Origin: an uncultured Eubacteriales bacterium
Lineage (GTDB): Bacteria > Bacillota_I > Bacilli_A > RFN20 > CAG-826
Direction: 5' to 3'
Length of the DNA stretch: 64,000 nt
Assembly: GCA_963652335.1 (NCBI GenBank)
Contig: CAVJSS010000001.1
Coordinates: 60 to 64,059, forward strand
The position numbers and the translations under genes are program-made. Of the stretch, positions 7,178 through 13,918 are shown one piece after another; the stretch's first letter is position 1, and each line of letters starts with the position of its first letter. A model generated the notes under the pieces. The model was not told the origin of the DNA. It saw nothing but the letters and a program-made list of their open reading frames with translations, and searched no databases.

Positions 7178-8056
7178 ATGAATTTCAAAAAACTGGCTTT
7201 GGCGGCATTATCCGCTTTGACGATTACGATGACTTCTTGCGAAAACAACGTTGATCCATCGGCTTCTTCTTCGATTCCACCCTCTTCTAGTTCGGATTCC
7301 AGCGATTCCGTTACGTCTCCTTGGGGAAAAGACATCTCGGCTTTGCTTCATAAACATTATGGGATGGACATTCCATTCCCTAGCGGTGCTTTGGGCGCCA
7401 AATATGGCGTTACCAAAGACAATTATGGCGATCCGATGATCGTGATCCTTTGCGAATTCGCGGATGCCGATGCCATCGATGCTGCGGTCGAAGCCTATGC
7501 CATAACGGCCGTAAACGAGGGATACAATGTCGTATCGGTGGATTACGACAATGGCCACCCCGCCTATGATTGCTCTATCCCTTATAATGATTCGATGACC
7601 ATGCATATCCAATGCTTGTATGGAGGGATGGACACCGATGACGACGGCGAAGCCGAAGATTACCTTGGCTTATTCGTTACTTCCGAAGCCAGCGTCGATC
7701 CATATGTTTGGCCAGCTGGATTGATCGAATATGTCCTTGGCTTTGAAGCGAATGTCCCTGCTTTGGAAGGCGAATACATCACTTATTCTTCTAGCGAGAT
7801 CCACGATGACGATTTCGGCAATTATGTGAACATCGTCGTTTATGGTGCGACTGAGACCGATTTCACTAATTATCAAAATGATCTTAAATCAGCTGGCTAT
7901 ACGGTCAAATTCTTCGAGGATGAAGACTATAGATATTATCTGGCTTGGTTAGACGAAACTTTCTTCATTCAATTGAATACCGGAACGGAAAATTCGAGAT
8001 ATTACATCGACATCAACATCGCCAAGGGCAACGTTCGCGATTCCTTCGATATCTAA
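7178..8056 (+). CDS. Lipoprotein built from two copies of a ~110-aa module (paralog of 9898-10701)
   Basis: 292 aa. Signal peptide with lipobox (LTITMTSC). Ser/Asp-rich tether SSSSIPPSSSSDSSDS. Internal duplication: PWGKDISALL..IPFP..EGYNVV and VWPAGLIEYV..VPAL..AGYTVK. Confidence 0.8.
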   Translation: MNFKKLALAALSALTITMTSCENNVDPSASSSIPPSSSSDSSDSVTSPWGKDISALLHKHYGMDIPFPSGALGAKYGVTKDNYGDPMIVILCEFADADAIDAAVEAYAITAVNEGYNVVSVDYDNGHPAYDCSIPYNDSMTMHIQCLYGGMDTDDDGEAEDYLGLFVTSEASVDPYVWPAGLIEYVLGFEANVPALEGEYITYSSSEIHDDDFGNYVNIVVYGATETDFTNYQNDLKSAGYTVKFFEDEDYRYYLAWLDETFFIQLNTGTENSRYYIDINIAKGNVRDSFDI

Positions 8057-8071
8057 AAGACTTTCCCATTT

Positions 8072-10723: not shown

Positions 10724-13700
10724 ATGATCAAGCCAAACAAATTGGTGCTTCTCTTCCTTTGCGGATCCGTCATAGGTCTTGCGGGATGCGACAACGCCAA
10801 ACACGACTCAGACTCATCCGACTCTTCTTCCTCGGTCCCTGGTCCCGATTCAGGTTCTTCGACTCCGAGCGAGGATAGCAGCAGCACCCCCCCAATAGAT
10901 CGTTCTTCCGCATTGGAAAGAGCCTTCAAGAAAAACTATTCCAACTTCACCGCTTATGTAGGCGCCATTGGTACTCAAGGCGCTTACGGCGATTCGGAGG
11001 TGGCATGGTATGACTATCACGTCAACGGATACGACGTCATCTACGATGTCTCCGGCGATGAGGCCATGTGGGCCTACTTCCACGATTACGAAGGCAAGAA
11101 TTATCGTTATTTCGAAGAAGATTCTTCCGAACCAGGCTCCCCGGCGTGGCTGAATTCCGTCTATGATGGCGTCTCTTGTACCTTAAGCCATTCTTATTGG
11201 TCTCTCGACGCCTTCCTAAATAACGTCGAAGCCGCGGACTTCACCTATATGAGCGGCTATTATGTCTTCTCCAATGCCAATAAGTTCGACAATGTCGTCA
11301 ATACCGCCTTCGAATCATTCTACGAAACCGAACTTCTGGACCTTGTCCTTCAATTGGATGCAAATGGTTATATCTCCGTCATCAAGGCTTTTGGCGAAGA
11401 TGCGGAAACCGATTTGGTCGACATCGAATTGTATGATTTCGCAACGAGCGCAGCGCCAAGCAGTGCAACCATTCCAGAGGCTCCTAATGCCAATAACGTC
11501 AAAGAATATTGGCAATACAAAGGCTGGTCCGGACCGCAAGTCCATGTTTATCCAAAGACCATCAATTTGGTTCCGGATGCATCCGCTGCGAAAGAAGGCG
11601 ACGCTTATGTCCTTGAGATTGAAAAGGATCTACATTTCGCCTATGAGATCGTCTATGACGTCCCTGAGGGCGTAGAAGAAGCAAGGCAGATCAAAGAAAG
11701 CACCGTCAAATTCGTTTCGACAAACGATAAGGTCGCGACCATCGGTGTCGATGCTAATTACAAAAGAGTCGTCAAAGCCGTTGCCGCCGGAGATTGCGAA
11801 TTCTATGTCGAAGGCACTGCCGAAGCTGGTAAAGAAGCCGTCAAATCCAATTCCATCAAAGTCCATGTCAACGGATTGGCCGAAATCGATATGACTGATG
11901 CGGTCTATAACATCACCTTCGATGCCAATTCCGATCTTGGCGTTGCCCCAGCCGCCAGCAACTCGCTTAATTCCGCCCTCCCATTCGACATCCAAGTCAA
12001 TAAGGGCGTCAATGTCATAACAGCTCCGGAAAATAGCACTCTCTTCGGCAATAAGAAGACTTTGCTTATGAGGACGGGCTTGCAGAATACCATGAACGAG
12101 ACGTTCCAAGATGAGAACACTGCGGCCGATGCCGTTGCCGTCTTCGATTTCGATGATCAGCAAGTTTCCGGCATCGCCTTCTATTACGGCGCGGTCTATG
12201 GCAATTCCTATAAGCCTGATATGGTCACTAAGATCGCCATCGAAGCCAAGAACCCATCTCAGACTTGGGATGAAGCTCAGGTCATAGATATCACCGCTGA
12301 CGTTAAGGAAAACCTTTCGACCGAGAATTTCCATTTGGTCCAAAAACAATTCTTGCCAGCCAGCCAAGTCAGGATCGTCATGCGCAGTTCCGTCATCGGA
12401 GACAGCATGGAAATGGGCATGGATAACCTTATCTTCGCTTCCAATGATCAATGCAAGCAACACTACATCGCCGATCAGAATCCAGTCACTTCCGTCACCA
12501 TTTCCGAAAATAGCGGCGCGACTGCCGTCAGAATGGGAAAGACATTGAGCTTCTCGGCCGGAGTCTTGCCAAACAACGCTACTTCCAAGGCCGTCGTTTG
12601 GAAAGTATCCGATGATGAGGTCGCTTCTATTTCGGAAGATGGCGTTTTGACTCCTAAGAAAGTCGGAACCGTCACCGTCACCGCCTCTTCTTATCATGGC
12701 GTAACAGCCGACCCTGTCGTTTCCAATGAAATCGTGATCACCGTCAAAGAAGCCGCTGCCGTTCCTGCCGCTATGAAAGGCACTTGGATCGAAGATGACA
12801 TCTATGGCCTTAATACCTTCGTTTTCACCGATAACAAGGTCTCTATCGAATTCTCCAACGGCGATAAAGTCGAACTTACTCTCGATGACATCAACGATTC
12901 CAATTACTGCGTGTTTGGGAATTATGTCGATAAGAACACCGCTGGCTATCTTTTAGCCAAGCCATCGTCTTCTTATTCCGGAAAAGTCGATTATAGCTAC
13001 AATATCGTGGTCGGCGAAAACACCCATACCGCCAATATCTATTCTTCTTCCAGCACTCTCGCTAAGAAAGCCGAGACCTTCACTTTGAGCGTCACCAAGA
13101 GCGAAATCAAAGTCGGCGCCAAGACTGCCTTGTCGGCTAAATTCGGTCCAAGCGGATGCTACGAAGAAGACTGGAATGTCGTTTCTTCCGATGATTCCAT
13201 CGTTAAGATCAATAACGATGACGGAGTCAAAGAGGCTGTCGGCGTCGCAGCCGGCAAAGCCACTTTGACCGCGACTTCGTCTTCCGGCTTGAAATCAACC
13301 GTTGAAATCACGGTCGTCGAGCCACAAAAAGTCTCTTCGATAATCGTTAATCTTTCCGCCTCTTCCGTTACCAAAGGAAGCTCCGTTACCGCTAGTGCGG
13401 TCGTGGCTCCAACCGATGCCGAGAACAAAGCCGTCACTTGGTCCACTTCCAACGAAGAAGTCGCGACGGTCAATAGCAAAGGCGTGGTTACCACCACCGG
13501 AGTTGGCACGGTTGATATCATCGCCACTGCGGCCGATGGCTCTGGCGTTACTGGCAAAGCGACATTGACCGTCACTGAACCGACTTCCACCTTTGATGGA
13601 ACCTATACGGCGACTGATACGACCAAATATGGCGCCTCTTTAACCGTAAAGATCTCCGATTCGGGCAATTCTTGCGAAATCGATGCGACGGACAGTTATG

Positions 13701-13918
13701 GATCCGGAACGTTGGCTGGTACGCTTGAAAAGAAGTCTTCTAGCGGAAACATTTATGTTTACGAAGGAGGACTTGAAGATTCGAGTTATGGAAATGTTGA
13801 CGTTGTTGTCACGATTGATTTCGACAAGATGACCATAACGATCGATTGCGAGTATTCAGACAACGCATTCATGTTTGATAGTTGCGAATTCCAAAACGCC
13901 ACAATCACCAAAGCCTAA
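10724..13918 (+). CDS. Large surface lipoprotein with multiple Big_2 (bacterial Ig-like) domains
   Basis: 1064 aa with lipobox IGLAGC and a Ser/Asp/Pro tether. It has at least four Big_2-like segments, for example VTSVTISENSG..VWKVSDDEVASISEDGVLTPKKVGTVTVTA and VSSIIVNLSASS..VTWSTSNEEVATVNSKGVVTTTGVGTVDIIA. Confidence 0.85.
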   Translation: MIKPNKLVLLFLCGSVIGLAGCDNAKHDSDSSDSSSSVPGPDSGSSTPSEDSSSTPPIDRSSALERAFKKNYSNFTAYVGAIGTQGAYGDSEVAWYDYHVNGYDVIYDVSGDEAMWAYFHDYEGKNYRYFEEDSSEPGSPAWLNSVYDGVSCTLSHSYWSLDAFLNNVEAADFTYMSGYYVFSNANKFDNVVNTAFESFYETELLDLVLQLDANGYISVIKAFGEDAETDLVDIELYDFATSAAPSSATIPEAPNANNVKEYWQYKGWSGPQVHVYPKTINLVPDASAAKEGDAYVLEIEKDLHFAYEIVYDVPEGVEEARQIKESTVKFVSTNDKVATIGVDANYKRVVKAVAAGDCEFYVEGTAEAGKEAVKSNSIKVHVNGLAEIDMTDAVYNITFDANSDLGVAPAASNSLNSALPFDIQVNKGVNVITAPENSTLFGNKKTLLMRTGLQNTMNETFQDENTAADAVAVFDFDDQQVSGIAFYYGAVYGNSYKPDMVTKIAIEAKNPSQTWDEAQVIDITADVKENLSTENFHLVQKQFLPASQVRIVMRSSVIGDSMEMGMDNLIFASNDQCKQHYIADQNPVTSVTISENSGATAVRMGKTLSFSAGVLPNNATSKAVVWKVSDDEVASISEDGVLTPKKVGTVTVTASSYHGVTADPVVSNEIVITVKEAAAVPAAMKGTWIEDDIYGLNTFVFTDNKVSIEFSNGDKVELTLDDINDSNYCVFGNYVDKNTAGYLLAKPSSSYSGKVDYSYNIVVGENTHTANIYSSSSTLAKKAETFTLSVTKSEIKVGAKTALSAKFGPSGCYEEDWNVVSSDDSIVKINNDDGVKEAVGVAAGKATLTATSSSGLKSTVEITVVEPQKVSSIIVNLSASSVTKGSSVTASAVVAPTDAENKAVTWSTSNEEVATVNSKGVVTTTGVGTVDIIATAADGSGVTGKATLTVTEPTSTFDGTYTATDTTKYGASLTVKISDSGNSCEIDATDSYGSGTLAGTLEKKSSSGNIYVYEGGLEDSSYGNVDVVVTIDFDKMTITIDCEYSDNAFMFDSCEFQNATITKA

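Follow-up and report, generated by a model that had tools for sequence, protein, structure and literature searches.

An operon at positions 7178 to 13918 of the 64,000-nucleotide stretch of DNA analyzed here (the window), which comes from an uncultured Eubacteriales bacterium, is predicted to combine two separately conserved units. Unit A comprises the large lipoprotein G4 and two small lipoproteins, one g3-type and one g1-type, which are built from a module of ~110 amino acids (aa); Unit B is an M6-like protease. The operon consists of four open reading frames (ORFs) on the forward strand: g1 (7178-8056, 292 aa), g2 (8072-9874, 600 aa), which encodes the protease, g3 (9898-10701, 267 aa) and g4 (10724-13918, 1064 aa), which encodes G4. 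Comparison of related loci points to the trio of G4, g3-type and g1-type proteins as a deeply conserved unit, and to a protease that derives from a separate neighbourhood of M6 proteases and oligopeptide ATP-binding cassette (ABC) importers (Opp) and was repeatedly joined to G4. We give an about even chance to the reading that this is a surface cassette for protein capture and digestion that feeds peptide uptake, with the M6 protease placed inside an older trio of G4 and module proteins.

Twenty-seven related loci were scored with hidden Markov models (HMMs) for the protease, the module and G4. A scan of genome contigs with the single g2 protein gave two close loci, and a six-sequence subfamily alignment served as query for the metagenome scan. 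The evaluable sets were 14 loci in which the neighbours of a module protein were visible and 11 non-redundant M6 protease loci. A G4 homologue was the direct neighbour of the module lipoprotein in all 14 module loci, the usual order being g3-type, G4, g1-type, and an M6 protease was present in just six of them. Among the 11 protease loci, G4 occurred in seven, module proteins in six and Opp directly upstream in five. G4 is regarded as the hub gene of the neighbourhood. An earlier note, made from the letters of this DNA alone, had read the four genes as a functional unit and had proposed conserved co-occurrence of the module with M6-like proteases as a check. The conserved four-gene order described below supports the first idea; the small lipoproteins as protease-specific partners do not survive, their constant partner being G4. 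Co-occurrence with the protease was likewise not general: modules bracket a G4 homologue instead in L013 and L016-L018.

The order g1-g2-g3-g4 was kept in L001, L002 and L006, at 60-72% protease identity and with differing flanks. L005 and L026 carried Opp, an M6 paralogue, the g2 orthologue, a 682-aa lipoprotein, g3 and g4 in that order, without g1. A related arrangement in L008 ran from Opp through an M6 paralogue, a g2-like gene and a 692-aa lipoprotein to a g4-like gene, without a module protein. The protease came straight after Opp in L003 and L010, without modules or G4, and stood alone in L023 and L024; together with L008 these are the five of 11 protease loci that have no module protein. 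The Opp genes (SBP_bac_5, OppB, OppC, OppD and OppF) overlapped or sat within about 100 nucleotides (nt) upstream in L003, L005, L008, L010 and L026. Because Opp is co-operonic in these relatives, with stop and start codons overlapping or nearly so, we argue that this protease clade would produce peptides for uptake.

The Opp components beside the proteases were unusually large (binding protein about 890-900 aa, OppC 527-694, OppD 541-677), a size typical of Mollicutes Opp systems. They occupied positions 1-6117 of L003, 1-6131 of L005, 1-5752 of L008, 1-7899 of L010 and 1-2174 of L026. One or two M6 paralogues followed each Opp, and then, in four of the five loci (not L010), a conserved 682-706-aa lipoprotein without a Pfam match. 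These 682-706-aa proteins form a separate lipoprotein family. Modules were also sought in the unannotated 435-706-aa neighbours of distant proteases; only signal-peptide-level matches were obtained and these were rejected.

Metagenome loci reached from distant module proteins held no M6 protease, and in the same loci full-length G4 homologues (E=1e-67 to 1e-110) adjoined the module genes. In L013, L016, L017 and L018 a module protein was followed by G4 and then by a g1-type protein; the upstream protein was confirmed as g3-type in L013 only. G4 preceded a module protein in L015, where that protein was g1-type, and in L021, and a g3-type protein preceded G4 in L025 and L027. A g3-type gene thus lay immediately upstream of G4 in L001, L002, L005, L006, L013, L025, L026 and L027. 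No protease was found within the 3-7 kilobases of flank on either side in L016 and L017. The 'binder, protease, binder' appearance of the window arises because the protease gene lies between g1 and g3 in the window's clade.

Within the window, the four genes are predicted to form a single operon encoding four lipid-anchored surface proteins. The gaps between g1/g2, g2/g3 and g3/g4 were 15, 23 and 22 nt. Each protein had a lipobox after a basic/hydrophobic leader (ending MTSC in g1, LFSC in g2, LFSC in g3 and LAGC in g4), and in orthologue alignments the lipobox Cys was invariant in g1, g3 and g4 and conserved at 90% or more in g2. Because such a leader was found in just seven of the 51 window ORFs (non-nested, 150 aa or more), a run of four is unlikely by chance (~0.007 by our own arithmetic). 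An intrinsic terminator of a hairpin plus U tract (13926-13970, +) marks the operon end and also faces a convergent tRNA_edit gene. Its hairpin (13926-13964) folded at -19 kcal/mol with z=-4.1, and 0 of 200 shuffles folded equally well. A simple scan missed this terminator because the hairpin loop exceeds the scan's loop limit; inside the scanned region, terminator-like matches were no more frequent than in shuffled sequence. These results confirm the four adjacent lipobox genes with 15-23 nt gaps and one strong terminator that the earlier note had described.

The same note had g2 and g3 overlapping if the start at 9871 was used. That start is callable for g3, but orthologue alignments favoured 9898, which leaves the 23-nt gap, as well as the 292-aa form of g1. 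The public calls for g1 (P0121, 237 aa, without a signal peptide) and g3 (P0130, 276 aa, with nine additional N-terminal residues from start 9871) both appear mis-started. A Shine-Dalgarno-like AAGGAG was seen in the intergenic sequence before g1 (7166-7171, +), and a consensus promoter scan of 7064-7165 upstream of g1 gave nothing convincing.

The relatedness of g1 and g3, proposed from the window sequence, was confirmed. BLASTP matched the two proteins at E=3e-5 in the C-terminal part alone, and comparison of the two family profiles with hhalign gave 95.9% probability and E=6e-9. Because the profile-profile match spans 243 columns, g1 and g3 are considered paralogous along their whole length. 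The g1 protein, which defines the g1-type partner of G4, has a Ser-rich linker and two ~110-aa alpha+beta modules at aa 46-172 and 173-292; the modules of g3, which defines the g3-type directly upstream of G4, lie at aa 47-164 and 165-267. Eight orthologue clusters of g1 measured 288-308 aa, seven of them aligning full length, and a word-indexed search returned eight to nine close clusters for each small lipoprotein.

The N- and C-terminal modules within one protein matched each other only at E>=0.1, pairwise and with shallow profiles. That negative was misleading: the duplication emerged later from AlphaFold2 (AF2) models and from deeper profiles of the family. AF2 predicted the topology a-b-b-a-b-b-b-b in both halves of g1 and g3, with a predicted local distance difference test score of 76 for g1 and 67 for g3 (80-95 in its C-module). 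With module HMMs built from 27 diverse family members, the C-module HMM matched the N-module of g1 at 5.5e-6 and that of g3 at 3.4e-6; in the reverse comparison, the N-module HMM reached 1.6e-8 and 7.4e-5 on their C-modules. Since the module profiles cross-match, the two-module design is regarded as real, and the two tandem ~110-aa modules that had been described in each small lipoprotein are borne out.

The module family is large. An exhaustive HMMER search with a joint profile found at least 310 clusters (50% identity) at E<=1e-3 and 97 at 1e-10. Members were mostly of two-module (~270 aa) or three-module (~380 aa) architecture, some arrays reached up to ten matched stretches and 1431 aa, and a lipobox was present in 129 of the 148 representatives listed. 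No Pfam family covered the module. DUF6591 (PF20234) matched g3 at E=0.0047 with 17.2 bits, under its gathering cutoff of 27.1; it gave no match to g1 and matched one of 38 members of the wider family, at 2e-4. Literature searches on DUF6591 returned nothing specific. When the two whole-protein models were compared with the PDB by Foldseek, no match reached E<=1e-3. For a single module, the closest local match was the BamC N-terminal domain (2yh6, probability 0.99, template modelling (TM) score 0.41, E=0.067), followed by DcrB (6e8a, probability 0.82, TM 0.35). Both are small alpha+beta lipoprotein domains, and the match values (TM 0.35-0.42 over 75-102 residues, E>0.06, 13-17% identity) suggest a generic fold resemblance more than membership. 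The top whole-chain matches (double hot-dog dehydratases, RnlA and PAS dimers) were rejected as meaningless at TM<0.25. The earlier note, too, could assign the module to no named family.

G4 combines an N-terminal region of ~570 aa with domains of binding type. The N-terminal region includes a discoidin-like jelly-roll around aa 470-575, a position that is approximate and placed from homologues, and Big_2 domains follow at aa 587-658 and about 786-952, with small beta-rich domains interspersed. Big_2 (PF02368) matched three stretches of G4 (E=9.8e-26, 90 bits, cutoff 22.8); F5/8 type C (jelly-roll) matches appeared in G4 homologues only. The earlier description of at least four Big_2 domains plus a jelly-roll is thus reduced to three above the Pfam threshold, and its jelly-roll holds through the homologues. 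The N-terminal ~570 aa had no sequence relative in the PDB, where the matches to G4 were Ig-like domains only. The Big_2 domains and the homologues' discoidin-like domain suggest a suitability for ligand capture away from the membrane.

The protease g2 has a Big_2 stalk at aa 48-96 (PF02368, E=1.3e-5, 25.5 bits, above the gathering cutoff of 22.8), a catalytic domain at aa ~143-421 and a C-terminal region without family assignment. Its zinc-binding and catalytic motif, HETGHLLGLND (aa 325-335; 9044-9076, +), follows the pattern HExxHxxGxxD, in agreement with the 600-aa HExxH protease with its own Big_2 domain first noticed in the window. Residues H325, E326, H329, G332 and D335 were invariant across 26 g2 homologues with identity down to 32%, as was M352, a candidate Met-turn. 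The M6 domain model TIGR03296 matched g2 at E=9.6e-18 over model positions 4-274 of 286, with 65 bits against a curated cutoff of 110.8. PF05547 was not reported by Pfam on g2 itself at E<=0.1, and is precomputed on many g2 homologues at 32-42% identity. Homologues numbered 1215, several of them annotated as M6 family metalloprotease or as immune inhibitor A; the named relatives came from metagenome-assembled genomes labelled Bacilli bacterium, Candidatus Onthovivens and Coprobacillus. Searches of the PDB sequences, run with g2 and with its family profile, returned snapalysin (M7) at E=0.035 around the motif, plus Big_2-like stretches, and did not retrieve the solved InhA structures. Given the below-cutoff model match, the invariant motif and the lack of InhA retrieval, we regard g2 as a divergent M6-like (thuringilysin-like) zinc metallopeptidase that is probably active, to judge by its motif.

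The HExxHxxGxxD motif with Asp as third ligand is that of the thuringilysins (M6) and snapalysins (M7), and the IgA-cleaving igalysins (M64) have one additional residue before the Gly, HExxHxxxGxxD (PMC12237041). The shorter spacing in g2 is therefore not that of an M64 igalysin. With M6 InhA/thuringilysin, g2 shares the zinc site and its Asp ligand, the near full-length M6 model match and PF05547 in homologues. It differs in being lipid-anchored, whereas InhA is secreted, in its N-terminal Big_2 stalk and scores under curated cutoffs, and in partners (Opp, G4 and module proteins) not known for InhA.

Other known systems resemble the cassette in logic more than in components. Like lactococcal PrtP/PrtM/Opp, it joins a surface-anchored endopeptidase, lipoprotein accessories and an oligopeptide ABC importer, which is co-operonic in the relatives. 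However, PrtP is an S8 subtilase with an LPXTG anchor and g2 a metallo, M6-like enzyme with a lipobox anchor; the cassette accessories are unrelated to PrsA/PrtM, and Opp is not adjacent in the window. Neither S8 nor rotamase domains were found in the cassette proteins with Pfam and NCBIfam. At most, the cassette would work like the lactococcal system, without being a member of it. Mycoplasma MIB-MIP, likewise from a low-GC Bacillota lineage, has a binder-like surface protein encoded next to a protease, but MIP is a serine protease, and the small proteins of the cassette pair with G4 and not with the protease. None of the four proteins matched the MIB or MIP (DUF31-type serine protease) families in Pfam or NCBIfam, so the parallel remains conceptual, as the earlier note had held. 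Polysaccharide-utilisation-type loci and RagAB likewise encode surface lipoproteins, a hydrolase and an importer together; these Sus/Rag-type loci belong to another type of envelope, the cassette is without SusC/D, an ABC importer stands in place of the TonB-dependent transporter, and the components are unrelated in sequence. Literature searches on M6 lipoprotein/Opp systems returned nothing specific. Neither the module family, nor its strict pairing with G4 homologues, nor the composite operon appears to have been described before; as far as the profile matches indicate, only the protease and the Big_2 domains belong to described families.

In the reading that we favour, G4, g1 and g3 would assemble on the surface into a complex able to bind a macromolecule, and this trio would keep an external (glyco)protein at the face of the membrane. 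The neighbouring protease, lifted by its Big_2 stalk, would cut that protein to oligopeptides, which would then be imported by an Opp system encoded elsewhere in the genome. That the trio forms a complex and binds a ligand, what the protease cuts, and that the cassette serves nutrition are all inferences. Capture, cleavage and import are favoured because of the conservation of the trio, the link between the protease and Opp, the binding-type domains of G4 and a lipoprotein with an Endonuclease_1 domain elsewhere in the window. The surface capture and cleavage suggested from the window sequence is plausible as a putative function, since the g2-like proteases of relatives share an operon with Opp. 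The Endonuclease_1 protein (19912-21723, +; 603 aa, lipobox, E=4e-19) is a probable surface nuclease and a second lipid-anchored hydrolase, as would suit a bacterium that uses hydrolases on its surface to scavenge macromolecules.

Several observations weigh against this reading. The M6 enzymes that gave the family its name (InhA) target defence proteins of the host and do not serve nutrition, and the distant proteases of L023 and L024 have neither Opp nor G4 nearby. In the 64-kb window, the search for Opp found generic ABC ATPases only and neither a binding protein nor a permease, which leaves the link to uptake dependent on the relatives. For the modules, no structural relative could be named with confidence; the local BamC and DcrB matches come closest, at E>0.06, and ligand binding by the modules is for that reason a guess. 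A more speculative proposal, which we consider somewhat doubtful, is that the g3-type, G4 and g1-type proteins form an undescribed tripartite surface machine of wall-poor or reduced Bacilli, built around the ~110-aa module: a general platform for capturing macromolecules, to which different lineages would have added M6 proteases and Opp.

The proteolytic target might instead belong to the host. G4 and the modules would then bind a host defence protein (immunoglobulin, mucin or an antimicrobial peptide) that the protease inactivates, with Bacillus InhA, mycoplasma MIB-MIP and the IgA-cleaving metallopeptidase of gut Thomasclavelia ramosa as functional analogues. The relatives of g2 named immune inhibitor A, the origin of named relatives in gut- or faeces-associated Bacilli (Onthovivens, Coprobacillus) and the common presence of Ig-like and discoidin-type domains in adhesins all agree with such a role, and there is a precedent: a metzincin from a gut member of the Bacillota, with Asp as its third ligand, cleaves IgA (PMC12237041). 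We nevertheless think immune evasion unlikely: the repeated co-operonic Opp importers point to nutrition, the zinc motif has M6/M7 and not M64 spacing, there is no homology to MIB or MIP, and the G4 trio occurs without any protease. In a different explanation, the trio would be a complex for surface architecture or adhesion unrelated to proteolysis and the protease gene a co-expressed passenger in this clade. The trio has a longer history and a wider distribution than its link to the protease, the clade has the protease between g1 and g3 where the distant order is g3-type, G4, g1-type, and the modules carry no recognised catalytic or substrate-binding motif. Yet links between G4 and M6 proteases occur in at least two arrangements, with modules (L005, L026) and without (L008), also within Opp operons, and the merged cassette stays intact at 60-72% protease identity despite changing flanks. 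A complex of this kind seems to us improbable, to about the same degree as immune evasion.

The earlier note had also offered g1 and g3 as cognate chaperones or inhibitors of the protease, which could make them PrtM-like maturation factors or a latency factor. Lactococcal PrtM, a lipoprotein maturase encoded beside a surface protease, sets a precedent, and in this clade g1 and g3 flank the protease and, to judge from the gene layout, are co-transcribed with it. This is very unlikely to be their role, because the conserved partner of the modules is G4 and the protease comes from another neighbourhood. Five of the 11 protease loci have no module protein, module proteins occur without proteases and always beside G4, and only six of the 14 module loci include an M6 protease. 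Moreover, g1 and g3 contain no rotamase or known inhibitor domain, and arrays of up to ten matched stretches in proteins of up to 1431 aa are unlike a dedicated chaperone. A cytoplasmic cyclophilin encoded just upstream of the operon (6557-7063) was weighed as a possible PrtM-like partner but discarded, as it has no signal peptide; the genes 5' of g1 in L001, L002 and L006 also differ in size or family.

The genes flanking the operon are unrelated to it. Upstream are a HipA-like kinase, a MATE efflux protein, a Schlafen/AlbA_2 protein and the cyclophilin; downstream, on the opposite strand, are the tRNA-editing protein and a large membrane protein. In the distant relative L027 (995-4680), a convergent tRNA_edit (YbaK-like) gene likewise comes after the G4 homologue, the same layout as at 10724-14454 of the window, which suggests that this downstream junction is old. 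Glycoside-hydrolase-type genes lie directly 3' of the g4 orthologue in L005 (16173-17818) and L006 (14152-17694), with Bac_rhamnosid6H in both and a GH20 hexosaminidase also in L006; they might hint at glycoprotein foraging. L016 encodes, at 1295-2068 (-), a 257-aa protein with GNAT acetyltransferase and Barstar (barnase inhibitor) domains. L001 (CAVBUY010000002.1), titled Alistipes shahii, carries the Bacilli-type cassette at 70% protease identity, and its bin label is probably wrong.

Other features were noted elsewhere in the window. Two lipobox proteins of 553 and 673 aa (29141-30802 and 30792-32813, both -) had no Pfam match at E<=1e-4; their genes share 11 nt and probably constitute a further lipoprotein operon. 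A HipA_C-domain kinase (2312-3298, +; E=3e-42) is a possible toxin of a HipBA-like toxin-antitoxin pair. The organism is assigned to Bacillota by its class B RNase P RNA at 47840-48161 (+, 243 bits), and an FMN riboswitch at 40151-40268 (+) is found upstream of the ORF at 40209-41015.

The carriers of this cassette are uncultured, probably gut-associated Bacilli known from metagenomes only. The analysis yields an unnamed, widespread module, its strict partnership with G4 and the repeated recruitment of M6 proteases and Opp. Should the general capture platform exist, it would amount to a 'protein utilisation locus' of Gram-positive bacteria whose logic parallels that of Sus/Rag. If host proteins were the target, gut commensals would have in the cassette a new kind of surface system for evading immunity. 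If capture, cleavage and import take place as we propose, it would be the protein-foraging apparatus of this lineage, and a function would be provided for several uncharacterised lipoprotein families.

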